36,541 nucleotides of DNA from Bacteroidota bacterium (GTDB lineage: Bacteria > Bacteroidota > Ignavibacteria > Kapaibacteriales > UBA2268). Positions 930 to 22,373 of this stretch are shown piece after piece. The position numbers were made by a program, and so were the translations under genes. The notes under the pieces were generated by a model. That model worked only from the letters and a program-made list of their open reading frames with translations, ran no database searches and was not told the origin of the DNA. How positions within the stretch are numbered: the stretch's first letter is position 1; the number at the start of each line of letters is the position of its first letter. The stretch is taken from positions 1 through 36,541 of the forward strand of contig JAFRQN010000311.1 in NCBI GenBank assembly GCA_017428585.1, written 5' to 3'.

Positions 930-3374
930 ATGTCAAAAAAATCTATTATTTATGTATTATTTTTGTTTTTAGTTAGTGCTTTAACAGCACAAGCTGCAAA
1001 CAAAGATATTATTGTAACAGATCCGACTGGTGGTGCATTCCGTGGAATTATTGATACAAATAAAAACACAACACAATTTAATTTTTGTGAACCGAAGGTA
1101 AATGTTTATTCAGCTGATAAATATTTCGCACCATTATCTTTTAAAACAAAAAAGCAATTAACCTCACAATTATTAGGTAATTCTTTTAATGTTCTATCAA
1201 CATTGAGTAAAACAAATTTACTATTTCCTGCTGAATTTTTTGCATTAAAAGTAAATGCCAATTCTTCTACACTCCATTATTACAGCATCGATTATCAATT
1301 AGATAGTAAATGTAATCAAGCAATAAATATTGCACCAAAATGGATGCGTAATGATTTGCTCTTAAAATTCAGAGAATTAAGAAAAAAGAAATCAGGATAT
1401 GATGCAATATATGCTCAAATCATTCTTGATGCTGCAAAAGAAAATACAAAATATGTTGATGAAGTAGCTTTTTTAGTAGCTCATACTCCTATCGAAATAT
1501 TATCAAGATCTGATATTATAAGCAATAATGATATGAAAAATTATATTGCTGATGTAAAACACATTTACAATGTAGCAGATTCTTTAAAATATGTTCGTAT
1601 CGTAGAGCATGGAGATTATTCAACAGGAGATTATTATACAACAACAGAATATAGATATAAACCAAGTCCTTCTGCAAGTCCTGTTTGGGGAGCAATTCCT
1701 TATGAAATATATTATTGGTATGTTGTACATCCACAAATTTATCAAGAGTTAATACAATATACTGACAATCCTTCTTTTACAGAACAACGTACTTGGGGAT
1801 ATTCATGGCGTGAATTTTATTGGTCTAATCCAGATCCTGCTCATAATTATATGCCTGTAAATCAAAAAAATAAAATAGGAGAAGTTGTTTCAATACCAAG
1901 ACTTGGTGAATTAATGCAAAATCCTGAAATACTATTTGACAGAAAATATGATTTACTTCATTTTGGAAGAGCATTTAATGAAACTACAAATACAGCATTA
2001 GATGTACTTGGAAATTGGTGTTCTCGAGCAGTACCAGGCGATCCAAGTGATAACAATTACAGACCAATTGCTCCTAATCAAGTTTTAACACATCATAGAG
2101 GAAGATGTGGAGAAGATACTCAAGTTTTGGTTGCAGCAGCACGTACTTGTTTAATTCCTATTATTGCAAGAATAACTCATTGCGAAGATCACGTATTTGG
2201 CGCTGTTTATGACATAGATAGATGGCAGCATTTTGAATTTTTCCGTGGCGGCCTTGCACAAAGCGGATGGGGTTGGACACATTTAAGCAAATCAAGCACA
2301 TACGAAGAATTAGCTCCTGATTATTGGATAATATCTACAATAAATGGTATGCGTCCTGATGGTTATGCTTATAATCATACTTCTGTTAGTAATGATCCTT
2401 ATACAAAAACTTGTGAATTAGTATTTACAGTAAAAGATGCTAATGGTCGTCCTATTGATGGTGCTATGATAAATTTACATGGTGTTCCTTATTGGCGAGA
2501 TACTGTATTTAATAGTGTTCAATATACTTATTCTTTTAGCGCTTTCACTGATAAAAATGGTGTTGCACGTATAACAGCAGGTGATGGAAAAACTTATTTG
2601 TATAAAATTTATCATTCTGGATTTACTAATGGACAATATCCTAAAGATACTCTAAGTTTTAATATTGCTGTTGGAAAAGTTTACGCAGGAAAATTAATTG
2701 GAAAATCTGAAGCTGGAAAAGTTTATGAACAAAATATTGTTATATCTGATTATAAAATCCCTGATTATAACATAACAAAAAACAACTATATTGAATCAAC
2801 TAAATATGCTTTAGAAATAAATATGAAAGCAAATGACATACTTATGAGTCAAAATAATGGCAGAACATTTGCTTATTGGAATCCTGATAGTGCTGGATAT
2901 ATGAAATATTTCGTTGTTGACCAAAACAACTTCGATAAATTACAAAATGGTCAAGCATTTGAAGTATATTCAGAATTTAATTATCAAGATAATGGTACAA
3001 TACAAATACCTATTCCTAATAATACAACAGATTGGTTTGTTGTTTGCAGCAATAGATTATCAACAAGACAAGCTCAACTTGTAGAATTTGAAGCTAATTT
3101 AATTGAAGGCGACTTTAGTTATTCAAGCGTTGAATCAGAATTTGTTAAAAATTGTTCTTTCTATCCAAATCCATTTAATTCTTATTGTAAGATCTCTGTT
3201 CCTTCAGGAGCAAGTTTAGTAGAGATTATTGATATTAATGGAAATACATTATTCTCTACAACAGAAACAGAATTTAATTGGATACCAGATAATACAATTA
3301 ATCAAGGTGTATATTTTGTTAGAGCAAAAATAAATAACAGATACTACATAGATAAAATTATTTATAACAAATAA
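930..3374 (+). CDS. Secreted transglutaminase-like protein with a T9SS C-terminal sorting domain
   Basis: Signal peptide MSKKSIIYVLFLFLVSALTAQA. Transglutaminase-like Cys/His core GRCGEDTQVLVAAARTCLIPIIARI...EDHVFGAVYD (nt ~2090-2240). CarboxypepD_reg-like strand VFTVKDANGRPIDGAMINLHG. C-terminal Por_Secre_tail-like FYPNPFNSYCKISV...GVYFVRAKINNRYYIDKIIY. Confidence 0.7.
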   Translation: MSKKSIIYVLFLFLVSALTAQAANKDIIVTDPTGGAFRGIIDTNKNTTQFNFCEPKVNVYSADKYFAPLSFKTKKQLTSQLLGNSFNVLSTLSKTNLLFPAEFFALKVNANSSTLHYYSIDYQLDSKCNQAINIAPKWMRNDLLLKFRELRKKKSGYDAIYAQIILDAAKENTKYVDEVAFLVAHTPIEILSRSDIISNNDMKNYIADVKHIYNVADSLKYVRIVEHGDYSTGDYYTTTEYRYKPSPSASPVWGAIPYEIYYWYVVHPQIYQELIQYTDNPSFTEQRTWGYSWREFYWSNPDPAHNYMPVNQKNKIGEVVSIPRLGELMQNPEILFDRKYDLLHFGRAFNETTNTALDVLGNWCSRAVPGDPSDNNYRPIAPNQVLTHHRGRCGEDTQVLVAAARTCLIPIIARITHCEDHVFGAVYDIDRWQHFEFFRGGLAQSGWGWTHLSKSSTYEELAPDYWIISTINGMRPDGYAYNHTSVSNDPYTKTCELVFTVKDANGRPIDGAMINLHGVPYWRDTVFNSVQYTYSFSAFTDKNGVARITAGDGKTYLYKIYHSGFTNGQYPKDTLSFNIAVGKVYAGKLIGKSEAGKVYEQNIVISDYKIPDYNITKNNYIESTKYALEINMKANDILMSQNNGRTFAYWNPDSAGYMKYFVVDQNNFDKLQNGQAFEVYSEFNYQDNGTIQIPIPNNTTDWFVVCSNRLSTRQAQLVEFEANLIEGDFSYSSVESEFVKNCSFYPNPFNSYCKISVPSGASLVEIIDINGNTLFSTTETEFNWIPDNTINQGVYFVRAKINNRYYIDKIIYNK

Positions 3375-8872: not shown

Positions 8873-11800
8873 TTAGTTAGATTTAACAAATTTAAACCAT
8901 TTATCTTTATCATTATTTGATATACAAACTGAATAAGTTCCAGTATTAAGATTTGATACATCAACAGTTACTGTATTATTTGAAAGCAGTTTGTCCTGCT
9001 TCAAAACTATATTTCCATTTAGATCATAAATCTTTATTGAAACTAATCCAAAGTCTTCTATTGATTCAAAAGATATTATATCTTCACTTGGATTTGGATA
9101 AATCATAATTGAATTATTTATATCTTTTTGTGCTATACTTGTAAATCCATCCAATACAAAAGAATATACAAGTCTTTTTCCAAAATCAGGATTAAATGTC
9201 TTTAATTTTTGACCTTCACTATCAACAATAGAAATAGCACCATTGCCTTGTTGAGTAACCATCCAGGAAGACAACCCATAATAATATCTTTCATCTGTTA
9301 CCTCTAATCTATAGCATCCGTTAGGCAAATCTGTTAAATTAAAGGTATATATTTTATTATTTGTATTTGCAGGAAGTGTTTTAACTAATTCATTTCTAAA
9401 ATCATAAATTTTTAATGAATAATCACTTGCACGAAGATTGCTTGTATATTTTATTTGAAAATCTGATTTGTTGTAAATATCTGGAATTTTGAAAATAGCT
9501 TTTCCTTGATTATTAGATAAATTTTCATCACCTTGATTATTAAGTGTAATAACTATTTCATTTTCATTGTTATTTCCTGTCCAGAATTTAGCATCATTTA
9601 ACATAATAGTTATAGTATCCAATGATCGAGGAGCGATACTTTTTTCTACAAAATGAGTTTCTTCTTCCACGCCATTTTTTAATACAACTTCAAAATTTTC
9701 AATTGCTTCATCAGAATTATTGCGTACAATAAAATTGACACCATTACAAATAGGATTTAATTTGCTGTAAATATCCTCTGTAGAAGGTGTAATTATTTTA
9801 TACAATTCTAAATCATTTTTATATTTAGCTTTGCCGTATTCCACTAAATGGAATGTTGCAACGTATGAACCTGTACCAATTTCTGGATATTTGCCTAAAC
9901 TATCAGAACTAATTTCGTAATTAAGAGCTATTTTGCGATCATCAGAAATATATTGTGTTAAATCAACTTCATAGTCATTTACTATATCACCAGGACACCA
10001 ACCTTCACGATTCAACATCCAAGTACCTCCCTGAGGCCATACTGGATTATCTGTACAATGTCTCCATATTTTCCATTCACCTGCTAAATCAAAATCATCA
10101 GGAGTTGGACCTGCATATATGTAATGTGTATTATCTAAAAATTCACAGCATTGAGATGGATGTGATGTATTTGGAACCATACCATGTCCAGTTAATCTAA
10201 CTTTTAATTTTATTGTTTCTGTTTCTGGCAGTAAACTTACAACAGCATCGCCTACATCTTCATCTTTTGCCAATCTGTTATAGCTATAGCTTTTACATGG
10301 TCCCCATGGTTCAGATATTCTTAATATATCTCTTAATGGCTCGCCTTTTATAAATAAAAATTTTAAATCTATTAATTCTTGATTATTATGAGCTTCTAAT
10401 TCTATTTCGCCTCTTAGATCATTCATATAATCCGTTACATCATATTCCCATTCAAATCCATTCTCGCCTAAAGATAAATTGATACCGTATGGAGTAATAA
10501 AACGTCCAATTTCATATTCAACTTTTTTAGGATAATGTTTTGTTTCATACTCAAACAATTTATCATCTACTACATATTCCTCAAAAGATCCTTCAGTCTC
10601 AACGGAATCTATCTTTTCAAGATTTGAATCATATATATATATTTGTTTCCCATATTTATGATCTATTCTTTCTACCTTAGGGTAGTTTCCATCTCCGTTG
10701 AAATATACTATGGTTGCAGGAGCCTGTTTGCGAAGTCTTTTTATAGCTTCTTCTTTTTTAGAATATTGGAAATCACCAGTATGTAAAACTATATTAGGAA
10801 TAAAATTAGTTTGTGTTGTTAAATTAGGTCCTGTTCTTGTATCGTATAATTCTGCTCGTCCAATAATATTAGCGTTAGATTTTATTACACCATGATTTTG
10901 AAGATAGAACGCACCTGCTTCATCGTCATTTAAATCAAGATTTATCAATAAATTTGATGATAAAGGATTATCTAATGAAATATCTTTTGAATACAAATCT
11001 ACAATTTGTTCTTCCTTTAAGTTTGTATTCCATACTCGTATTTTAGAAAAATCGCCATTTGTATTAGATGTTATATTTGTATCTGATAAATATTCTCCTT
11101 GACCTATTGCAAAATCAACTGGCAAATCATCTATAAAGCGAGGCATATATATAGTTACCCAATATTGATGATATTCCAATGCAGCAGGTTTTGAATTAAT
11201 AAATAATTTCAATACATCTTTACAAGTCTCACCATTACCATTATAAACAACTGCTATATGAGTCCATTCGTTTAGATGGATTGGTGAATTATTAGTAAAT
11301 GCATTTAACGAATGTTCGCCTTTTAAACCAATAGACATTGACATTGCGTTATCAGCATTAGGAGTATTCGCTGATATAACAACCTTATCGCCTAATCTAA
11401 AAATAACGCCTGCATCACGAAGTCTTACCCAGCCTTCAAAAGTAAAATGCTGACCGCCAGAAATAGATGGCAGATTTGTTGTATTAATCCAAGCATCATC
11501 ACCATTTAATCTAATATAATTAGAATTAGCTATTGTTATTGCAACATTTTTTGATGATGTTGTACCTCTAAAAACATTTTTTGATCCTTTAGTTGGAATA
11601 TATGATACATCAACAATAAGATTAGATGAACCATCATAAACAAAATCCTTTTCAAAGTCTAATGTTAATGTTTTTCCATCTTGACAATCTTCTTTGGTAA
11701 CAAATGTTTGATATACAACATCTTGATATTCTAAATTTTCATTATATGCTAATATTTGTTGTGTTAGCTTTTTAACAGGTGCAATTCTTATTCTTACATG

Positions 11801-12379
11801 TTCCATAGTATCTACTATAGAAGCATCAAATGAAATTTTACCAATTTTTGTACCTTCTTTTATACCCTGCTCAACCAATTCTTTATTAAATAATAAGAAT
11901 TGGTGTCTTGAAAAATCTTTTAATTCAACTTCTCCTGTTCCTAAAGCAAATTTTGTAATATTATCAGAAACACTTGTTGATTTAACATTTGAAATATTTA
12001 CCGTATCTATATTTGCTTCATCCTTAAAACTAAACTTAGTTCCAGGAACAGGTTTGTTAAAATTACCTAATGTACTTACAGGATGCTTGTAAATAGAAAA
12101 AGCATCTTCGCCAGTAGGCTTGTGTATTTTCATATATGCTAAATAATCCCATTCAGCACAGCTGTATTTATCATGTTCAGTTTTTGGATCACATTTTAGT
12201 CTGTATTTTGCAATTACACGTTGAAATTTTTCATTTGCATCTGGAAATTTAAACACTGCCTGACGCGTAAATATAGAATCAAATGTAAAAGTTTGAACTG
12301 TTACTGTATCGCCGCTATATACAAACAAAGGACATAGAATTAATACAACTATAAAACAAAGAAACTTGTTAATTTTCAT
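8873..12379 (-). CDS. Large secreted PNGase-F-like / LamG-domain protein with a T9SS C-terminal sorting domain
   Basis: Signal peptide. N-terminal module with KYRLKCDPKTEHDKYSCAEWDY. LamG-like block HFTFEGWVRLRD...WTHIAVVYNG...LKLFINSKPA (nt ~10970-11482). N-glycanase-C-like block LTGHGM...CCEF...WPQGGTWMLNREGWCPGD (nt ~9890-10312). C-terminal IYPNPSEDIISFES...GTYSVCISN T9SS tail. Confidence 0.65.
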   Translation of the reverse strand: MKINKFLCFIVVLILCPLFVYSGDTVTVQTFTFDSIFTRQAVFKFPDANEKFQRVIAKYRLKCDPKTEHDKYSCAEWDYLAYMKIHKPTGEDAFSIYKHPVSTLGNFNKPVPGTKFSFKDEANIDTVNISNVKSTSVSDNITKFALGTGEVELKDFSRHQFLLFNKELVEQGIKEGTKIGKISFDASIVDTMEHVRIRIAPVKKLTQQILAYNENLEYQDVVYQTFVTKEDCQDGKTLTLDFEKDFVYDGSSNLIVDVSYIPTKGSKNVFRGTTSSKNVAITIANSNYIRLNGDDAWINTTNLPSISGGQHFTFEGWVRLRDAGVIFRLGDKVVISANTPNADNAMSMSIGLKGEHSLNAFTNNSPIHLNEWTHIAVVYNGNGETCKDVLKLFINSKPAALEYHQYWVTIYMPRFIDDLPVDFAIGQGEYLSDTNITSNTNGDFSKIRVWNTNLKEEQIVDLYSKDISLDNPLSSNLLINLDLNDDEAGAFYLQNHGVIKSNANIIGRAELYDTRTGPNLTTQTNFIPNIVLHTGDFQYSKKEEAIKRLRKQAPATIVYFNGDGNYPKVERIDHKYGKQIYIYDSNLEKIDSVETEGSFEEYVVDDKLFEYETKHYPKKVEYEIGRFITPYGINLSLGENGFEWEYDVTDYMNDLRGEIELEAHNNQELIDLKFLFIKGEPLRDILRISEPWGPCKSYSYNRLAKDEDVGDAVVSLLPETETIKLKVRLTGHGMVPNTSHPSQCCEFLDNTHYIYAGPTPDDFDLAGEWKIWRHCTDNPVWPQGGTWMLNREGWCPGDIVNDYEVDLTQYISDDRKIALNYEISSDSLGKYPEIGTGSYVATFHLVEYGKAKYKNDLELYKIITPSTEDIYSKLNPICNGVNFIVRNNSDEAIENFEVVLKNGVEEETHFVEKSIAPRSLDTITIMLNDAKFWTGNNNENEIVITLNNQGDENLSNNQGKAIFKIPDIYNKSDFQIKYTSNLRASDYSLKIYDFRNELVKTLPANTNNKIYTFNLTDLPNGCYRLEVTDERYYYGLSSWMVTQQGNGAISIVDSEGQKLKTFNPDFGKRLVYSFVLDGFTSIAQKDINNSIMIYPNPSEDIISFESIEDFGLVSIKIYDLNGNIVLKQDKLLSNNTVTVDVSNLNTGTYSVCISNNDKDKWFKFVKSN

Positions 12380-14062: not shown

Positions 14063-15871
14063 ATGATTAATATAAGAAAACTTGAAGCAGAATTATGGGA
14101 GTCTGCTGACCTTCTCAGACAAGGCAGCAAGCTGACCAGCAACCAATATTGTATGCCAGTGTTAGCTCTTCTTTTTCTCCGTTATGCATATAGCCGATAT
14201 AAGAAGGTGGAAGAAGAAATTCTAAAGAATCGTCCTGTACGAAATGGTCGTGTTATGCCTATAGAACCCAGCGACTTTGCTGCTAAAAGTGCATTGTATC
14301 TGCCAAAAGAAGCACGTTTCGAATTTTTGGTAAATCTACCTGACAATATTGTACAAGCAGGATTGAAAAGCAAAGATGGACACGATATCAATTCATTGGG
14401 TGAAGCTGTTAATAATGCAATGCAGTTAGTTGAAGATCAAAGTGAACAACTAATCGGTGTACTTCCTAAGACTTATACAAGTTTTTCTGATGACCTGCTC
14501 CGTGAACTGCTTCGAATATTCAACAATAAAACTATTGATGAAGTAGGCGGTGATGTTATCGGACGCATTTATGAGTATTTCCTCTCCAAGTTTGCAAAAG
14601 CTGTTGCAAGCGATGACGGCGTATTCTTTACACCAAAATCTTTGGTAAAAATGTTGGTCAATGTATTGGAGCCTAAAAAGGGAGTTATGCTTGATCCTGC
14701 CTGCGGAAGCGGAGGTATGTTTGTTCAAACAGGTGATTTTATTAATGCTTCTGGTATGAATGCCAATACTAATATGACTTTCTACGGACAGGAAAAAGTA
14801 GAATATAATGCTCAGCTGTGTCTAATGAATATGGCTGTACATGGTCTGAATGGACGTATCGTTTCTGGAGATGAAGCCAATTCGTTCTATCATGATGCAT
14901 ATAATTTGGAAGGCAAATGCGATTATGTTATGGCAAATCCTCCTTTCAATGTAGATAAAGTAAAGGCTGAATCTGCCTCTGCTGCAGGGCGTCTTCCTTT
15001 TGGTTTGCCTGGAGTCAATGCTAAAACGAAAGAAATAGGCAATGCCAATTACCTTTGGATAAATTATTTCTATTCTTATCTCAACGATCACGGACGTGCT
15101 GGTTTTGTTATGGCAAGTTCTGCAACAGATAGTGCCAACAAAGACCGTGATATTAGAGAGAAACTGGTTCATACAGGTGATGTCGATGTGATGATCAGTG
15201 TTGGCAATAACTTTTTCTATACCCTGTCGCTTCCATGTTCTTTATGGTTCTTCGATCGTAACAAAAATAAGAACATTAGAGACAAGGTGCTTTTTATTGA
15301 TGCTCGCAATTATTATACAGTAATTGACCGTACCCTTAATGAGTGGACTGAATGGCAGCTTCGCAATCTGCAAGCCATCGTACATCTCTATCGTGGTGAA
15401 AAAGATAAATACATAAAACTTTTAGAAGATTATAAAGCTGTATTAGGAAACACTACTGCTGCATCAGCACAAGCTGACCTTGACCGCCAAAAAGCAGAAG
15501 CTAAAGAAGCTGTAACTAATGCCTCACGCAAGAATAAAAAACAAATTGAGAAAGAACAAAATGCTCTTATAGCAGAACTTGAAGATATGCTTGAAACAGC
15601 ACGCCAATATGAATGGTTAACAGAAAAATTTGGTAAAGATGGTATATATCAAGACATTCTTGGACTCTGCAAAATTGCATCCATTCAAGAAATTGAAGAG
15701 AAAAACTATTCACTTACTCCGGGTGCATACATTGGAGTAGCTGAACAGGAAGACGATGGAGTAAACTTCCAAGAACGTATGAATGAAATTCATGCTGAAT
15801 TGGCAAAATTGAACAGTGAAGCCAATACTCTGATGGAAGATATACAAAAAGCATGGGAGGATTTGAGATGA
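14063..15871 (+). CDS. hsdM: Type I restriction-modification system, DNA methyltransferase subunit M
   Basis: HsdM N-terminal helix bundle (LWESADLLRQGSKLTSNQYCMPVLALLFLRY). SAM motif I DPACGSGGMF. Motif IV NPPFN. C-terminal KNYSLTPGAYIG tail. Confidence 0.93.
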   Translation: MINIRKLEAELWESADLLRQGSKLTSNQYCMPVLALLFLRYAYSRYKKVEEEILKNRPVRNGRVMPIEPSDFAAKSALYLPKEARFEFLVNLPDNIVQAGLKSKDGHDINSLGEAVNNAMQLVEDQSEQLIGVLPKTYTSFSDDLLRELLRIFNNKTIDEVGGDVIGRIYEYFLSKFAKAVASDDGVFFTPKSLVKMLVNVLEPKKGVMLDPACGSGGMFVQTGDFINASGMNANTNMTFYGQEKVEYNAQLCLMNMAVHGLNGRIVSGDEANSFYHDAYNLEGKCDYVMANPPFNVDKVKAESASAAGRLPFGLPGVNAKTKEIGNANYLWINYFYSYLNDHGRAGFVMASSATDSANKDRDIREKLVHTGDVDVMISVGNNFFYTLSLPCSLWFFDRNKNKNIRDKVLFIDARNYYTVIDRTLNEWTEWQLRNLQAIVHLYRGEKDKYIKLLEDYKAVLGNTTAASAQADLDRQKAEAKEAVTNASRKNKKQIEKEQNALIAELEDMLETARQYEWLTEKFGKDGIYQDILGLCKIASIQEIEEKNYSLTPGAYIGVAEQEDDGVNFQERMNEIHAELAKLNSEANTLMEDIQKAWEDLR

Positions 15872-16128
15872 GAGAAAAAGACATGAAAAAACAGAAATTG
15901 ACATCATCAGTGCTTAAATCCATTATTCAGTATTTGTATCAGATAGTTAAGCAATTATATATTCAATACATTACAAAGAATAAGAGTATTTTATCTCTTT
16001 ATCCAATTATGTCCACATTGAGGACGCAATTAAATTGGTCTCAAAATAAACTACTTTTTAAAACTGAATATAAACCTACCATAAACAATTTAATTTATGA
16101 ATTTGTTACTATCGATGAATTGATATAA
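15853..16128 (+). CDS. Small hypothetical ORF (91 aa; alternative ATG at 15868) filling the hsdM-hsdS spacer; may be a gene remnant
   Basis: Open frame overlapping the hsdM stop by 19 nt and ending 19 nt before the hsdS ATG. Very AT-rich (15/60 GC in 15961-16020). No family recognised with confidence. Confidence 0.3.
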   Translation: MGGFEMREKDMKKQKLTSSVLKSIIQYLYQIVKQLYIQYITKNKSILSLYPIMSTLRTQLNWSQNKLLFKTEYKPTINNLIYEFVTIDELI

Positions 16129-16147: not shown

Positions 16148-17368
16148 ATGAGTCAGTGGAATAAGGTGAAATTGAAAGATTGTTGTATAAAAATAGGCAG
16201 CGGAGCAACTCCAAAAGGTGGTTCTACTGTATATATAGAATCTGGAATTTCTCTTATAAGAAGTCAGAATATCTATAATTTATTTTTTGATTATAATGGA
16301 TTAGCACATATAACAAATGATGCTGCTAAAAAATTAGATAATGTAACAGTTTATGCAAATGATGTATTAATTAATATTACAGGTGATTCAGTTGCAAGAA
16401 CTTGTATTGTTCCCAAGGATGTTTTACCAGCACGAGTTAATCAGCATGTTTCAATAATTAGAACAGATAATAATGTTCTTGATGCTCACTACTTGAATTA
16501 TTGTCTAGCAAGTCCTTTCATGCAAGCATATATGTTAGGTTTAGCTGTAGGCAGGGGGACTTCGCGAAATGCAATGACCAAAAACATGATTGAGGAATTC
16601 GAAATTCCATATCCTCCATTGCAAACACAGCATAAGATAGCCGATATTCTTTCCCGCTATGATGCATTGATAGAGAACTATCAGAAACAGATAAAGTTAT
16701 TGGAAGAAGCAGCACAGAGATTATATAAAGAATGGTTTGTTGATCTTCGTTTTCCTGGATATGAAAATACACAAATTGTTGATGGCATACCTGAAGGGTG
16801 GGAAAGGAAGAGTATAAGTGATATTATTAATCTGCAAAGTGGTTATGCATTTAAGAATTCAACTTTTGATAAAAAAGGGAAATATAAAATAGTAACAATT
16901 AAAAATGTTAAAGATGGTTTTTTTGATGGAAATAATGTTAGTTATATTAATTCGATTCCAAGCAAGATGCCAACTCATTGCATATTAAATTCGGGTGACA
17001 TATTATTGTCTTTAACAGGGAATGTCGGTAGAGTATGTATGGTTATTGGTAAAAACTATTTACTAAACCAACGAGTTGCGAAATTAAAATCTGCTTATAC
17101 TGCATATACATATTGTCTTTTCAGAAGTAAAGATATGTATGATGAAATTAATAATCTTGCAAATGGAGTTGCCCAACAAAATGTTAGTCCAATCAGAATT
17201 GGTGAATTAAAAATATTGGTTGCAAATGATGTTATTATGAACTTATTTGAAAAAATTACTGGCAACTATATATCTAATATATTACAAATTAATCATCAAA
17301 TATGCCTCTTGACTGAAGCTCGTGATCGTTTACTTCCAAAGCTGATGAATGGTGAAATAATTGTTTAA
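16148..17368 (+). CDS. hsdS: Type I restriction-modification system, specificity subunit S (two target-recognition domains)
   Basis: Central conserved region IPYPPLQTQHKIADILSRYDALIENYQKQIKLLEEAAQRLYKEWFVDLRFPGYE. C-terminal conserved helix LLTEARDRLLPKLMNGEI. Two variable TRDs. AGAGG Shine-Dalgarno-like sequence at 16134-16138. Confidence 0.9.
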   Translation: MSQWNKVKLKDCCIKIGSGATPKGGSTVYIESGISLIRSQNIYNLFFDYNGLAHITNDAAKKLDNVTVYANDVLINITGDSVARTCIVPKDVLPARVNQHVSIIRTDNNVLDAHYLNYCLASPFMQAYMLGLAVGRGTSRNAMTKNMIEEFEIPYPPLQTQHKIADILSRYDALIENYQKQIKLLEEAAQRLYKEWFVDLRFPGYENTQIVDGIPEGWERKSISDIINLQSGYAFKNSTFDKKGKYKIVTIKNVKDGFFDGNNVSYINSIPSKMPTHCILNSGDILLSLTGNVGRVCMVIGKNYLLNQRVAKLKSAYTAYTYCLFRSKDMYDEINNLANGVAQQNVSPIRIGELKILVANDVIMNLFEKITGNYISNILQINHQICLLTEARDRLLPKLMNGEIIV

Positions 17369-17375
17369 TATTTAT

Positions 17376-18353
17376 ATGGCAAATAAAATGGCAAAATTTA
17401 AAGATATAAAAGATTATATTATTCGTTCAAGCGATAAAGAACTAAACAAAAATTTTGAGAAAGAAAAGAATACTGAGAAAGAAAAGAATAATAAGTATTA
17501 TTATCAAATAGGTTCGCTTCAAAAAGGTTCATCTTACTATAAATACCTCCCTTATAAAAGAGCTCTTGAATGTTTAGAAAAGAGTATAATTACATTTGTT
17601 GAACCATCGAGCTGGGATGATACATACGAAAGCTTGTATTACGAAGCTGACTACGACAATGTTGCTCCCGAATACAAAGAACATCCTAGACTTTTTGCTA
17701 CTTGTGTAACTAATAAAAAATATGATGAAGCAGCTTGGCGGATCTATTCTGAACAAGACAAAACCTGTGTTCAATTTGAAATAGATAGATTCAATTTTCG
17801 TTACCAGCTTCTAAAAGCTATCAAGGACAAAGATCGTATTTACGAAGGAGCCGTTCAATATCTTTATAAAGGTTATATTGAAAATATTTATAAGAAAAAA
17901 CTAAAAAACAATAAAAATGAACCCGAGAAAGATAATTCTCTTTATAAAAAATTTATATCTAATGAAAACTATTTTACTAGAAAAAATTATCTAAATTTGT
18001 TATTACTAAAAAGAAGGGATTTTATTCATGAAAATGAAACTCGTTTTTTTATTATAAGGAAAAAAGATATTGAACATGAAGCAAAAAAAGCTATTAAAAT
18101 ACCAGATGGGATCAATAATGATCAAAAAATACCAAAAGGAAAATTATATATATTGAAAAATATTAGGTGGATTGATATAATAAAAAGAGTAACTATAAAT
18201 AGAAGCAAAGATAGTGAGGAATTCAAAAAATTACAAGAAATTATCAATAAAACAATAGATAATAGTGAGAAAGATAAAAAAAATAAAGATATAGAACTAA
18301 TTCCATATTCTGTTTATGGAGAAAAACAAGATAGAATTAAAATTGAAGCATAA
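17376..18353 (+). CDS. DUF2971-like hypothetical protein embedded between hsdS and hsdR
   Basis: The first ATG is at 17376; the tracked start at 17361 is a TTG. Motifs YYKYLPYKRALECLEKSIITFVEPSSWDDTYE, RLFATCVTNKKYDEAAWRIYSEQDKTCVQFEID and LLKRRDFIHENETRFFII match my recollection of the DUF2971 pattern (YxY...F..Ps.fnDp.E / fC.s...mW..Y....Gvc.eF / K..w..E.E.R). Lys/Asn-rich flanks. No Walker A. 7-nt gap after hsdS, and the stop lies 2 nt before the hsdR ATG. Confidence 0.75.
   Translation: MANKMAKFKDIKDYIIRSSDKELNKNFEKEKNTEKEKNNKYYYQIGSLQKGSSYYKYLPYKRALECLEKSIITFVEPSSWDDTYESLYYEADYDNVAPEYKEHPRLFATCVTNKKYDEAAWRIYSEQDKTCVQFEIDRFNFRYQLLKAIKDKDRIYEGAVQYLYKGYIENIYKKKLKNNKNEPEKDNSLYKKFISNENYFTRKNYLNLLLLKRRDFIHENETRFFIIRKKDIEHEAKKAIKIPDGINNDQKIPKGKLYILKNIRWIDIIKRVTINRSKDSEEFKKLQEIINKTIDNSEKDKKNKDIELIPYSVYGEKQDRIKIEA
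17457..17492 (+). repeat. In-frame 18-bp tandem duplication (2 copies, 17/18 identical) inside the DUF2971-like gene
   Basis: gagaaagaaaagaatact (17457-17474) followed by gagaaagaaaagaataat (17475-17492), encoding EKEKNT-EKEKNN. Confidence 0.9.
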
Positions 18354-18355
18354 TT

Positions 18356-21300
18356 ATGCCAAAAGAATATAGCGAAGACCAACTGATACAGAAGAATACA
18401 GCCGATCTAATGAATGAATTAGGCTGGACAAGTATATATGCATACGAAAAAGAGACATTAGGCAAAGACGGCACTTTAGGACGTAAAACATACAATGAAG
18501 TGCTGCTGATTCGTCATTTTCAGCAGGCACTAAAACGTTTAAATCCTTGGATAGATGATAAACAGCAGCAGGAAGCAACAGAGAGTATGACAGAACATAT
18601 CAGCTCTCAAACACTTATGCAGATTAACGAGCAGAAATATCACTTGATTCGCGATGGTATTCCTGTTAAACGAGTCAAACCGAATGGTGAAACAGAAGAG
18701 GTGCGTGCTAAAGTCATCGATTTCAATTCACCAGACAAGAATGAATTTATCTGTGTACGTGAATTGCAGATACATGGCTCAATTTATCGTCGTCGTGCTG
18801 ATATAGTTGGTTTCGTAAATGGCATTCCTCTTCTTTTTATAGAACTGAAGAATCACGATGTAGAAGTGATAGATGCTTTTAACCAGAACTACCGAGATTA
18901 TCTTGATACAATACCACATCTGTTCTATTATAACGCTTTCATTATTTTCAGCAATGGATTGGAAGCCCGTGTAGGTACAATAGATTCAAAATGGGAATTT
19001 TTTCATGAATGGAAAAGATTAAAAGAAGAAGATGCTGGCAGTATTGAACTGTCAACCATGCTAAAAGGCATCTGCAACAAAGAAAACTTTCTTGACCTTC
19101 TGGAAAACTTTATTCTTTATGACCACAGTGAAGGAAGAACAGCTAAAATCCTTGCCCGCAACCATCAATATTTAGGTGTAAATCAAGCAGTAGAAATGTA
19201 CCGTAAACGTCAATACTTGAATGGAAAACTTGGAGTATTTTGGCATACACAAGGTAGCGGCAAAAGCTATTCAATGTTGTTCTTAACACAGAAAATACGC
19301 AGGAAATTTGAAGGTTCGCCAACGTTCCTTGTTCTAACAGATCGTGATGAACTAAATAAACAAATCAGCAGTACATTTGAAAATTGTGGTTTATTAAGTA
19401 ATGACGCTAAAAAATATATTGCAGGCAGTGGATATGATCTAAAAACAAAATTAAAAGGAAATCCATCATTTATTTTCTCATTGATTCAGAAATTCAACGA
19501 TGCCAATGCAGAACCTATAATTCCTGATCATGATATTATTGTAATAAGCGATGAAGCTCATCGAACGCAGAACGGCATCTTTGCCGAAAACTTAATGCAT
19601 ATTCTGCCGACTGCTCATCGTATAGGTTTTACAGGTACACCTCTGTTGTCAAATGACAATATAACTGCCCGCACTTTTGGCGGCTACGTTAGTATATATG
19701 ATTTCAACCGAGCTGTAAAGGATAAAGCAACAGTGCCACTTTTTTATGAAAATCGTGGAAAGAAAATACAAGACTTGAAAAACCCTGAAATTAATGAGGA
19801 AATAGCAGCAGTTTTAGAACAAGCCGGCGATTTAGATGCTTCACAACAGGCCAAGCTGGATCAAGAATTTTCAAAAGAGGTACATATATTAACTGCAGAA
19901 AAACGTCTGCGTTTAATAGCTAAAGATTTTGCACGCAATTACAGCGATATTTGGACATCTGGCAAGGCTATGTTCGTCTGCTATAACAAAGTAACATGTG
20001 TTAGAATGTATAACTATGTGCAGGAGTATTGGCAGGAAGAGATAAAACAGCTGGAACACCAAATAGAAAAATGTAAATCTCAACAAGAAGCACAAGAAAT
20101 GCATCGAAAACTGACCTGGATGAAAGAAACAGATATGGCTGTAGTGGTTTCTCAAGAACAAAATGAAATACAGACTTTTCAAAAATGGGGTCTTGACATC
20201 AAGATACATCGTGAAAAGATGGAAAAACGTGAACTGGATAAGGAATTCAAAGATGCCGACTCAACGCTGCGTATTGTATTTGTATGTGCTATGTGGCTGA
20301 CAGGATTTGACGTAAAGACATTATCTTGTCTCTATATCGACAAACCTATGAAAGCTCATACTTTAATGCAAACCATTGCTCGTGCCAATCGTGTAGCGGA
20401 AGGGAAAATAAACGGTCTAATTTTTGACTATATTGGAATGGTAAAAGCTCTTCGTAAAGCATTGGCTGACTATACAGCTAATAAAGAAGCTGGAATTGCA
20501 GGAACCGATCCAACTATAGATAAAAAAGATTTAATTAAACAGACACTTGAAGCCATTGTACTAACAACAGATTTCTTGAAAGAACATAATTTCAATTTAG
20601 AAGATCTGATAAAAGCTAAAAATATCAATTTCAATATACTTTCTCTTTTGAAAACTGCTGCCAATGCTATGTGCGAATCAGCTGAAATTAGAAAAACATA
20701 CTGTACTTATGCATCACGACTATTAAATCTTTGGAAATATCTCGATCGTGAAGATATCACAGCTGAAATGAAACAGCAGAAAGATGCTATTCAAGCTATC
20801 TATAAAGAATTGCAAAAGAAGCGAAAACATGCAGACACGACGGATTTAAGTGTTGCTATTAATGAAATTATAAATGATTATCTGGAAATAGAAACTGAAA
20901 ATTTAAATGATAAGCCAAGCCGTCGTTTCAATATCAGCGAAATAAACTTTGAAATTTTGCGTCTTGAATTTGCGAATAGCAATAGAAAGAATTTAATACT
21001 AAAAGATCTTCAAGAATTGCTGCAGGAACGCATAAATAAAATGCTGGTACAAAATCCATCACGCATTAATTTCTACGAAAAATATAAAAAAATAATTGAA
21101 GCTTATAATAAAGAACAGAATCGTGCAGCAATCGAAAAAACTTTTGAAGAATTAATAGAGCTATCGAATGAACTGACAGAAGAAGAACAACGTTATATAC
21201 GAGAAGGTTTTGAAAATGACGAACAACTATCAATGTACGACATTCTGATGAAAGATGATTTAAGCAAGAGCGAAATCAAAAAACTTAAGAAAGCAGCGAT

Positions 21301-21502
21301 AGAACTGCTTGCTATAATTAAACAGAAATTGGAAGAAATGGATCATCCTTTTGATAAACAAACTACAAAAGCAGAAATTAAAGTTACTATCAAAGAAACG
21401 CTTTGGAATAAACTTCCTGATAGCTACTCTGAAGAAATCATACCACAATATATAGACAGAGTATATAACTATGTCAGTCAGCACTATGGCGGTGCTGCAT
21501 AG
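18356..21502 (+). CDS. hsdR: Type I restriction-modification system, endonuclease/translocase subunit R
   Basis: N-terminal PD-(D/E)xK nuclease (ADIVGFVNGIPLLFIELK). SF2 helicase motifs HTQGSGKS, VISDEAHRTQ, FTGTP and QTIARANRV. Long helical C-terminal domain typical of HsdR. 1048 aa. Confidence 0.93.
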   Translation: MPKEYSEDQLIQKNTADLMNELGWTSIYAYEKETLGKDGTLGRKTYNEVLLIRHFQQALKRLNPWIDDKQQQEATESMTEHISSQTLMQINEQKYHLIRDGIPVKRVKPNGETEEVRAKVIDFNSPDKNEFICVRELQIHGSIYRRRADIVGFVNGIPLLFIELKNHDVEVIDAFNQNYRDYLDTIPHLFYYNAFIIFSNGLEARVGTIDSKWEFFHEWKRLKEEDAGSIELSTMLKGICNKENFLDLLENFILYDHSEGRTAKILARNHQYLGVNQAVEMYRKRQYLNGKLGVFWHTQGSGKSYSMLFLTQKIRRKFEGSPTFLVLTDRDELNKQISSTFENCGLLSNDAKKYIAGSGYDLKTKLKGNPSFIFSLIQKFNDANAEPIIPDHDIIVISDEAHRTQNGIFAENLMHILPTAHRIGFTGTPLLSNDNITARTFGGYVSIYDFNRAVKDKATVPLFYENRGKKIQDLKNPEINEEIAAVLEQAGDLDASQQAKLDQEFSKEVHILTAEKRLRLIAKDFARNYSDIWTSGKAMFVCYNKVTCVRMYNYVQEYWQEEIKQLEHQIEKCKSQQEAQEMHRKLTWMKETDMAVVVSQEQNEIQTFQKWGLDIKIHREKMEKRELDKEFKDADSTLRIVFVCAMWLTGFDVKTLSCLYIDKPMKAHTLMQTIARANRVAEGKINGLIFDYIGMVKALRKALADYTANKEAGIAGTDPTIDKKDLIKQTLEAIVLTTDFLKEHNFNLEDLIKAKNINFNILSLLKTAANAMCESAEIRKTYCTYASRLLNLWKYLDREDITAEMKQQKDAIQAIYKELQKKRKHADTTDLSVAINEIINDYLEIETENLNDKPSRRFNISEINFEILRLEFANSNRKNLILKDLQELLQERINKMLVQNPSRINFYEKYKKIIEAYNKEQNRAAIEKTFEELIELSNELTEEEQRYIREGFENDEQLSMYDILMKDDLSKSEIKKLKKAAIELLAIIKQKLEEMDHPFDKQTTKAEIKVTIKETLWNKLPDSYSEEIIPQYIDRVYNYVSQHYGGAA

Positions 21503-21523: not shown

Positions 21524-21558
21524 AAAATAAGGCATTTATACAAATGCCTTATTTTATT
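21524..21558. terminator. Bidirectional intrinsic terminator between hsdR and the convergent LysM gene
   Basis: Stem ataaggcattt (21527-21537), loop atac, stem aaatgccttat (21542-21552), flanked by an A-run and a T-rich tract. Confidence 0.6.
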
Positions 21559-21575: not shown

Positions 21576-22373
21576 TTATAAACCTGGAGTAGTTGCTGCT
21601 GCTTCAGCTGCTGCAGCTTGAGCTGCACGTTTTTTTCTCCAATATTTTCTTTCTGCTTTTGATTCGTCATCTGTTTTTGGACCAGCAGGAGGAACCTTTA
21701 ATACTTGACCTGGATGAATTATATCAGGGTTGCGGATTTGGTCAGTATTAGCCTGCCATATTTTTGGCCATTGGAATGGATCACCGTAGATTTCCATCTT
21801 ACCAGAAATGTTCCATAAACAATCACGATCTTGTGCCCAAGTACCTACTGTATAACCAGAAATTTTCTTTTCTCTGTATAATCCTTTAATTTCTCTTGCA
21901 AGATTTAAGATTCTATCATAGAATTCTGGAATAACAGCTAATTTATTACCTCTTAATGTATTTAATTCAGCTTCTAATGCTTCTACATCGCTGCGTCTAT
22001 CAGCAAGTTCATCATTTGATAAAACTTTCATCTGTCTAACCTTGCCTTCGAGTACACCAAGTTGTTGACGGAAGTAATCGAGATCAGATTTAGTAGCATT
22101 ACATAATTTTAAGATTTCTTCTTCACAATCGTTATAACTTTGTTTAATGTTAACAATTTGTGCTTCAATACTATTTCTATCTTGTTTAACACTTTCAAGA
22201 TTTTTATTTAAAGCATCTACTTTTGATTGATATAAATTAATGCGGGCATCAGCCTCATCACAAGATAATTCCAAATCTGGCTTACTTTCTGGAGGTGGTG
22301 GAGGCAATTCTTTTGCATCAACAACATTTAACAATAAAACAAAAGATAAAAGATATATAAATAAATTCTTCAT
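21576..22373 (-). CDS. Secreted coiled-coil protein with a C-terminal LysM peptidoglycan-binding domain
   Basis: Signal peptide and a PPPPP linker, then about 130 aa of heptad-like coiled coil. LysM-like YTVGTWAQDRDCLWNISGKMEIYGDPFQWPKIWQANTDQIRNPDIIHPGQVLKVP. Basic/Ala-rich tail. Confidence 0.8.
   Translation of the reverse strand: MKNLFIYLLSFVLLLNVVDAKELPPPPPESKPDLELSCDEADARINLYQSKVDALNKNLESVKQDRNSIEAQIVNIKQSYNDCEEEILKLCNATKSDLDYFRQQLGVLEGKVRQMKVLSNDELADRRSDVEALEAELNTLRGNKLAVIPEFYDRILNLAREIKGLYREKKISGYTVGTWAQDRDCLWNISGKMEIYGDPFQWPKIWQANTDQIRNPDIIHPGQVLKVPPAGPKTDDESKAERKYWRKKRAAQAAAAEAAATTPGL

Follow-up and report, generated by a model that had tools for sequence, protein, structure and literature searches.

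A divergent DUF2971-like gene as exchangeable cargo in the hsdS-hsdR slot of a type I restriction–modification operon from a Bacteroidota bacterium

The stretch of DNA analysed here (36,541 nt, contig JAFRQN010000311.1 of assembly GCA_017428585.1, from a Bacteroidota bacterium; hereafter the window) contains a type I restriction–modification (RM) operon in which an open reading frame (ORF) for a protein of 325 aa, at 17376-18353 on the plus strand, lies between hsdS and hsdR. The gene is real, it encodes a divergent DUF2971 protein of the PADLOC family PDC-S31, and its relatives recur in the hsdS-hsdR slot of other operons, as cargo that has been shuffled on a conserved hsdM/hsdR backbone. What might such a protein do? 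The explanation that we favour, and would put at a little better than an even bet, is that it is an autonomous, auto-inhibited single-protein abortive-infection effector with an ADP-ribosyltransferase (ART)-like, NAD+-using core, carried as swappable operon cargo.

The gene is closely packed at both ends. The stop codon of hsdS (17366-17368) is followed after 7 nt by the ATG of the ORF at 17376, and the TAA stop of the ORF (18351-18353) is parted from the hsdR ATG at 18356 by a gap of 2 nt, exactly as reported in a first-pass annotation made from the sequence alone. A second ATG, at 17388, is the start adopted in the public gene call (P0001, 321 aa), and the N-termini of homologues ('MA[KT]..FK') align with this start at least equally well. 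The labelling of the neighbours by Pfam also confirmed that this is the slot, hsdS-X-hsdR, of PrrC, the anticodon nuclease determined by the E. coli EcoprrI locus (hsdM-hsdS-prrC-hsdR). The ORF thus resembles prrC in its place in the operon and in a tightness of packing that implies co-transcription; it differs in that its product has no ABC-ATPase domain or Walker A motif (the absence of the latter had been correctly reported) and matches no PrrC or RloC model in PADLOC at E<=1.

The affiliation of the protein is clearest from PADLOC, whose hidden Markov model (HMM) for PDC-S31 (PDLC04993) matches aa 44-241 with an E value of 1.3e-20 (71.8 bits); NCBIfam gave no match. The description of the gene as an orphan did not survive. 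A word-indexed search returned 59 homologues, all metagenomic, most of which have ~329 aa and are 43-52% identical to the ORF product at full length (the alignments cover 96-99% of it). When 1.84 billion representatives were searched exhaustively with a profile, 2,920 clusters (at 50% identity) had E<=1e-3, and 1,293 of these had E<=1e-10. No other sequence in the databases covered exceeds 52% identity to the window protein. All of the 124 family representatives sampled match PDC-S31, and 70 of them match Pfam DUF2971 at E<=0.01 (best 6e-6). Precomputed matches to the Pfam model (PF11185) are available for the relatives P0007, P0047, P0051 and P0059; the last of these, which matches the window protein with an E value of 5e-8, shares 52% and 38% identity with RefSeq entries named 'DUF2971 domain-containing protein' on Vibrio and Klebsiella plasmids. 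Three motifs (aa 54-85, 106-137 and 211-227) had been picked out by eye as DUF2971-like, and rightly so: judged by its sequence, the ORF product is best described as a divergent member of the DUF2971 superfamily, barely within reach of Pfam's short 89-position model. The arrangement as such was already catalogued, since the PDC candidates, to which PDC-S31 belongs, were defined by embedding of this kind (in type I RM, BREX and DISARM operons), and the ORF is a new and quite divergent member of what has the status of a candidate family only. An N-terminal SLFN/AlbA_2 nucleic-acid-binding domain is present in 39 of the 124 representatives, and TPR fusions in two. Such fused forms also occupy the hsdS-hsdR slot (loci L084, 6016-7440; L010, 7443-8930; L041, 3289-4506; L047, 7404-9029).

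Loci containing relatives were gathered from exact-protein look-ups, a genome scan (three loci, all in metagenome-assembled genomes (MAGs) of uncultured Bacteroidales/Prevotellaceae; the scan used a narrow back-translated pattern), a metagenome scan, with 51 loci, and a scan of viral sequences that gave 14 weak hits. ORFs were called, neighbours were labelled by BLAST against reference proteins, and homologues of the ORF were collapsed at 90% identity. In about 19 of the resulting ~44 non-redundant loci (~43%) the homologue is located between hsdS and hsdR, both flanks being visible in about 10, and the survey of neighbourhoods that had been recommended for this gene did reveal a strong association with defence loci. 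HsdM and HsdR of the hsdS-X-hsdR loci are 66-85% identical to those of the window. The homologue is always directly upstream of hsdR or parted from it by other cargo only, and gaps between homologue and hsdR are consistently 4-15 nt. Other cargo of the same operon lineage includes DUF1016/YhcG (PDC-S02) between hsdM and hsdS, Fic-HTH (PDC-S72), McrB-like plus McrC, and HD-CE/HATPase genes, and there are GmrSD_N genes downstream of hsdR. The hsdS-hsdR junction of this conserved lineage acts as a cassette slot, for DUF2971-like genes (with or without AlbA_2), Fic, McrBC and HD-CE/HATPase.

Some details of these operons deserve a mention. One type I operon can hold up to four cargo genes, and in five loci (L041, 4570-9203; L040; L045; L046; L048) genes for an McrB-like AAA_5 GTPase, McrC and Fic-HTH (PDC-S72) are interposed between the PDC-S31 homologue and hsdR. 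In L010 (11760-14854), where the operon also has an HD-CE plus HATPase gene, hsdR is in two ORFs (314 and 743 aa), possibly reflecting a frameshifted or pseudogenised subunit with retention of the cargo. A ~300-aa protein (cluster c12) with no Pfam or PADLOC match recurs immediately upstream of the PDC-S31 homologue (L027, 569-3296; L025; L026, 3307-5188), and in L027 it is flanked by two tandem PDC-S31 homologues.

The remaining contexts are mixed. In five of the ~44 loci the homologue follows a Septu-like PDC-M62A/B pair, PDC-M62A being a PtuA-like protein with TPR and an AAA_15/21 ABC-ATPase, and PDC-M62B being PtuB-like. The three genes form a tight same-strand trio (L001, 2576-8990; L014, 3125-8987; L017; L020; L077, 2989-7993), which may represent one system of three components instead of two neighbouring systems; the trio of L077 is directly downstream of another type I hsdR. 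Elsewhere the homologue adjoins a gene for a NACHT NTPase, a RES-domain protein or a UvrD/GajB-like helicase, and further loci have non-defence neighbours (ABC-F, ion channel, ATP-grasp, NusG-like) or resemble mobile genetic elements (MGEs), with HTH_3/ImmA genes.

Base composition also has a bearing on how the gene came to be where it is. The GC content of the ORF is 0.258, compared with 0.384 for hsdM, 0.353 for hsdR and 0.308 for the entire window, and the counts first put forward as evidence of its AT-richness relative to hsdM and hsdR (12/60, 30/60 and 27/60 for the ORF, hsdM and hsdR, respectively) were exact. Any argument for foreign origin built on them is, however, reversed at third codon positions (GC3), where the ORF (0.17) and hsdS (0.20) are like the host genes (0.12-0.18), and the compositional outliers, hence the foreign-looking parts, are the hsdM (0.29) and hsdR (0.28) of the backbone. 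Low GC as a mark of a foreign ORF is thus rejected; it is a consequence of a protein rich in Lys, Asn, Ile and Tyr (GC1 is 0.37 and GC2 0.23). Moreover, in 66 operon pairs the pairwise identities of the ORF product (34-79%) and of HsdR (71-97%) are uncorrelated (Spearman rho -0.11, p 0.38). The GC3 mosaic and this uncorrelated divergence together suggest that hsdS plus cargo is swapped, cassette-fashion, within conserved flanks formed by hsdM and hsdR, without co-evolution of the cargo with a particular enzyme.

Turning to the protein itself, invariant residues and the coverage of the PDC-S31 HMM delimit a conserved catalytic-type core, predicted to be ART-like, at aa 46-235 (17511..18080, plus strand). 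In the 124 representatives W80, D82, E85, C110, Y162, K212, E219, E221 and R223 are invariant, and K56, Y57, P77, W121, Y124, C131 and R213 are at least 90% conserved. The regions on either side of the core had been described as Lys/Asn-rich low-complexity tails, a view contradicted by the near-complete coverage of the protein by its homologues and by the ordered elements in an AlphaFold2 (AF2) model of the full-length protein (mean predicted local distance difference test score, pLDDT, 87.8; predicted template modelling score, pTM, 0.87). The N-terminus is modelled as a strand plus a long helix (pLDDT 76-92), the C-terminus (aa 255-325; 18138..18350, plus strand) as an alpha/beta module with pLDDT ~93-96 for aa 255-300, and residues ~240-255 are the sole poorly modelled stretch. 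The C-terminal module, in which W265 is at least 90% conserved, is kept in the ~329-aa clade in every genomic context, and is possibly regulatory or a sensor.

The catalytic motifs of ARTs, I (H/R), II (Y or S-x-S) and III (E or Q/E-x-E), are situated on beta1, beta2 and beta5, respectively, an ExE that opens a beta-strand being typical of motif III. In the AF2 model K56 and Y57 are on strand 53-59, C110-x-T112 is on strand 107-112, and E219-x-E221 is at the start of strand 221-227, a placement compatible with motifs I, II and III in that order. The candidate motif I position, residue 56, is K, H or R in the family, mostly Lys, and the candidates for motif II are C110-x-T112, Y124 and Y162. 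The candidate motif III (H218-E219-N220-E221-T222-R223; 18027..18044, plus strand), of which E219, E221 and R223 are invariant in both of our alignments (A1 and A2), would have its ExE at E219-x-E221. This part of the protein also overlaps a formal match (R213-H218) to the Rx4-6H pattern of HEPN RNases, which the first-pass annotation had failed to see; its conclusion nevertheless holds, because most of the wider family has Tyr at position 218 and the model shows an alpha/beta fold, so that this is not a HEPN motif.

It had also been supposed that DUF2971 has no assigned biochemical function, a view that has become outdated. Remote homology and modelling place DUF2971 in the HYE clade of the ADP-ribosyltransferase superfamily, near DarT, AbiGi and Tox-ART-HYD1, with a poorly conserved motif I, a strictly conserved Tyr in motif II and ExE as motif III (PMC12522546); the ORF family has the DUF2971-type Tyr and ExE (Y162, E219 and E221 invariant, Y124 at >=90%). 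Two independent papers put DUF2971 in the ART fold, and on this literature ART membership of the ORF product is plausible. A DUF2971 protein studied by experiment is Aristaios (pUCCL641_199, 316 aa), of the Lactococcus plasmid pUCCL641, which is a validated single-gene Abi-like system (Grafakou et al. 2024, PMC11381338; PMC13064643); it is active when cloned on its own, and it interferes with transcription of the phage (PMC11381338). Aristaios and the ORF product, both of them single-gene proteins of the DUF2971 family, are alike in their length of ~320 aa and in the prediction of an ART-like fold; unlike the ORF, Aristaios is plasmid-borne, in a Firmicute, and is not reported to be RM-embedded.

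A more general expectation of a defence role comes from the way in which the PDC families were defined, as genes embedded in type I RM, BREX and DISARM operons (145 curated candidates obtained through 'guilt-by-embedding'; Payne, Hughes, Fineran & Jackson 2024, bioRxiv 10.1101/2024.01.29.577857). Defence was seen for seven of the nine Hma-embedded candidates tested by these authors (10.1101/2024.01.29.577857), which supports guilt-by-embedding in general. There are precedents, too, for independent defence modules inside type I operons, in PrrC and in TgvAB (PMC11411939). The latter is a two-gene type IV system embedded in the type I RM operon of Vibrio cholerae VPI-2 and gives complementary protection without HsdR (PMC11411939); like the ORF it lies within a type I operon, but it is a GmrSD-like nuclease system with no homology to the ORF protein.

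How, then, might the protein work? If it is a defence protein, as we infer, its core (with motif I at K56/Y57, motif II among C110-x-T112, Y124 and Y162, and motif III at E219-x-E221 followed by R223) would be an ART-like, NAD+-using domain related to DarT and AbiGi. DarT, the toxin of DarTG, is an ADP-ribosyltransferase acting on thymidine in single-stranded DNA. On infection the ORF protein would block phage transcription or replication through modification of some target, probably a nucleic acid but possibly a protein; a nucleic acid is suggested by the similarity to DarT and KptA and by the AlbA_2 domains to which one-third of the relatives are fused. The parallel with DarT extends to a role in defence (presumed for the ORF protein), to the nearness of the two families within the HYE clade (PMC12522546) and to the leading place of DarT in the (non-significant) list of structural matches given below, but the ORF model has large helical inserts, motif I is mostly Lys rather than His, and the operon has no gene for a DarG-like macrodomain antitoxin. 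Auto-inhibition is proposed on the ground that the operon lacks an antitoxin gene of either the macrodomain or the NADAR type: the N-terminal helix and the C-terminal alpha/beta module may hold the protein inactive. The gene would ride as exchangeable cargo in a lineage of type I RM operons from Bacteroidales, where hsdS meets hsdR, and its co-transcription with the restriction genes would provide a layered defence.

A number of results weigh against this explanation, or at least against parts of it. The Pfam model for DUF2971, to which a match had been predicted, aligns with aa 121-224 of the ORF product (model positions 2-89 of 89) at just 17.8 bits (E 0.0087), below the gathering score of 22 bits, so that membership must be argued through relatives such as the 70 representatives that do match. 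The protein gave no direct match to a model for DarT or AbiGi, either in Pfam or in PADLOC. A Foldseek search of the PDB with the full model gave no significant match (best E 0.4, none with E<=0.001), although three Thermus DarT entries (7omx, 7omw and 7omv) are among the top four of the non-significant ones (E 0.4-0.5; template modelling (TM) scores 0.42-0.47 normalised to DarT; for the best of them probability 0.38 and TM 0.47, likewise normalised), and many KptA/Tpt1 entries plus cholera toxin A, all with the ART fold, recur at non-significant scores below them. The same search with a core-only AF2 model (aa 40-237, pLDDT 82.9) brought no gain: DarT was lost, and weak matches to KptA/Tpt1 were kept (root-mean-square deviation ~3.8 A over ~100 columns, probability <=0.28). 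Profiles of alignments A1 and A2 found nothing meaningful among all PDB sequences, and the candidate catalytic residues are placed by their strand position in the AF2 model. The relationship to Aristaios is at the level of the Pfam family only and not by sequence (a tblastn search of a plasmid collection with the window protein gave no Lactococcus match), and we found in the literature no published phage challenge or functional test of PDC-S31. Finally, about one-third of the genomic contexts are without obvious defence neighbours, and, as type I RM embedding occurs in all parts of the family tree, there may yet be a genuine functional tie to the enzyme.

Such a tie is central to the first of the alternatives, in which the protein is a guardian comparable to PrrC, held latent on HsdMSR and freed to kill or arrest the cell when an anti-restriction protein of the Ocr, ArdA or Stp kind disables the enzyme. 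RM guardians are an established concept (PrrC, PARIS), the ORF occupies the prrC slot with gaps of 7 nt and 2 nt, and ~43% of non-redundant homologue loci have the same organisation. In a neighbour-joining (NJ) tree, which was unbootstrapped, the RM-embedded members are spread over the whole tree, so that the association looks ancestral, and the conservation of HsdR and HsdM across operons (68-97%) means that a common docking surface could exist. Even so, we consider such a guardian unlikely. Type I operons account for fewer than half of the loci, and those of the closest clade (adjoining PDC-M62 or alone) are not among them, whereas PrrC is almost exclusively embedded in type I RM systems (Payne et al. 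2024, 10.1101/2024.01.29.577857). The ORF product has no sequence or domain similarity to PrrC, and Aristaios, another DUF2971 protein, is protective as a lone cloned gene. Embedded and non-embedded members are not told apart by any context-specific domain. The PDC-M62-linked members make up one nested clade of the tree and several clades from other contexts are likewise nested, which, taken with the failure of the ORF and HsdR to co-diverge, would argue for autonomy. Of the initial proposal of a second-line effector, what stands is therefore a role in defence, probably by abortive infection, as the best reading; the idea that it fires in response to anti-restriction lacks direct support, in view of the many loci outside type I operons and the absence of co-divergence with HsdR.

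Independent shuffling of cargo on the backbone would equally be expected of a selfish, addiction-type toxin or of a non-defence passenger, a mobile gene that stabilises its host locus and gathers in a recombination hot-spot between hsdS and hsdR without conferring phage resistance. The mixed contexts of the family, with their ABC-F, ion-channel, ATP-grasp and NusG-like neighbours and their MGE-like HTH_3/ImmA loci, fit this idea, as do the frequency of DUF2971 proteins on conjugative plasmids and the existence of phage-encoded proteins of similar fold (a search of BFVD with the model found uncharacterised phage proteins, best E 6.6e-4). It is made improbable by the lack of a visible partner antitoxin, by the strong enrichment of the family beside bona fide defence genes, by the anti-phage activity measured for a DUF2971 protein, and by the defensive properties of seven of the nine Hma-embedded candidates mentioned above.

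The protein might also be a defence effector of some other chemistry, in which the conserved residues (W-D-E, C, Y and K-R...E-x-E-R) form a non-ART active site (that of a nuclease or an NADase, for instance, or of an enzyme that modifies nucleotides) or serve in binding without catalysis. Every Foldseek match in the PDB is, after all, non-significant, sequence profiles provide no link to solved structures, the canonical His or Arg of motif I is mostly Lys in the ORF family, and AbiGi itself is without significant structural matches according to a FEMS review. That this seems to us an unlikely solution is because the ART fold, as DarT, KptA/Tpt1 and cholera toxin A, is the sole family to recur among the top matches with non-trivial probability, because two independent papers have assigned DUF2971 to it, and because an ExE at the beginning of a beta-strand is typical of ART motif III. 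Least probable of all, in our estimation, is a guardian unlike PrrC, an ART-like protein docked on and silenced by HsdR/HsdM, from which a phage DNA mimic or anti-restriction factor would release it to ADP-ribosylate nucleic acid, and which next to PDC-M62 would have been re-wired to a Septu-like ATPase sensor; were a guardian reading true, the family would be a portable effector that plugs into different sensor complexes.

The restriction genes themselves are all on the plus strand. hsdM (14063..15871) encodes a methyltransferase subunit of 602 aa (Pfam N6_Mtase, 7.1e-75; HsdM_N, 4.7e-13), 66-85% identical to HsdM of related loci that have an ORF homologue. The specificity subunit of 406 aa encoded by hsdS (16148..17368; Methylase_S in two stretches, 2e-30) is just 33-56% identical to HsdS of related operons, as is to be expected from the variability of target-recognition domains. 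hsdR (18356..21502) encodes the restriction/translocase subunit of 1048 aa (SWI2_SNF2, 1.5e-63; HSDR_N, 1.3e-42; also ResIII and T1R_D3-like), which is 68-80% identical to HsdR of related loci. The nearest relatives of HsdM and HsdR are from MAGs of uncultured Bacteroidales/Prevotellaceae from the rumen or gut.

The gap of 276 nt between hsdM and hsdS is associated with an ORF of 91 aa (15853..16128, plus strand) having weak matches to PADLOC PDC-S02 (best 7.5e-5). In the related operons L003, L019, L035, L037 and L047 this slot is filled by a full DUF1016/YhcG gene (362-377 aa), the product of which is a PD-(D/E)XK nuclease. BLASTP between the 91-aa ORF and DUF1016/YhcG gave a short match, 'L(R/A)T(Q/K)L(N/S)WS', only. 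Tentatively, the small ORF is probably a decayed remnant of a DUF1016/YhcG (PDC-S02) gene, in which case the operon would once have carried a second embedded gene.

A consensus scan of the window revealed no terminator-like site between hsdS, the ORF and hsdR, and the operon ends at a palindromic terminator-like hairpin with a 14-bp stem (21524-21555). A terminator-free interior followed by a hairpin after hsdR is consistent with a single hsdM-to-hsdR transcript, although it is not proof of one. The palindrome, which looks perfect, is between hsdR and a convergent minus-strand gene (21576-22373), and scores as a bidirectional terminator-like site. A scan for sigma-70 promoters found fewer sites than in shuffled controls, the consensus being uninformative for a Bacteroidota genome. 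The operon is flanked by housekeeping genes (for an H+-PPase, an aminoacyl-tRNA synthetase, an aldehyde dehydrogenase, OmpH, a SurA-like protein, an OPT transporter, PriA and proteins with sorting domains of the type IX secretion system, T9SS), and is thus a solitary insert and not part of a defence island. The T9SS sorting domains (Por_Secre_tail-type) are at the C-termini of two large proteins, encoded at 930-3374 and 8873-12379, and with a GC content of ~31% they indicate that the host is a low-GC Bacteroidota.

Given the published work on guilt-by-embedding, the outcome of this analysis was to be expected, and its worth lies in confirmation and practical use more than in new concepts. Experimental studies of defence systems offer poor coverage of Bacteroidales from the gut and rumen. 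The cassette slot between hsdS and hsdR should be useful for mining further defence genes. Two questions are brought into focus. Are PDC-S31/DUF2971 proteins anti-phage, and do they act through ADP-ribosylation? And is an effector that is embedded in a type I operon independent in its action, or does it, like PrrC, read the state of the restriction enzyme? With its simple order of hsdM-hsdS-ORF-hsdR and its housekeeping flanks, the locus is a compact natural test case, and the operon offers a clean system in which to put these questions to the DUF2971-like family.

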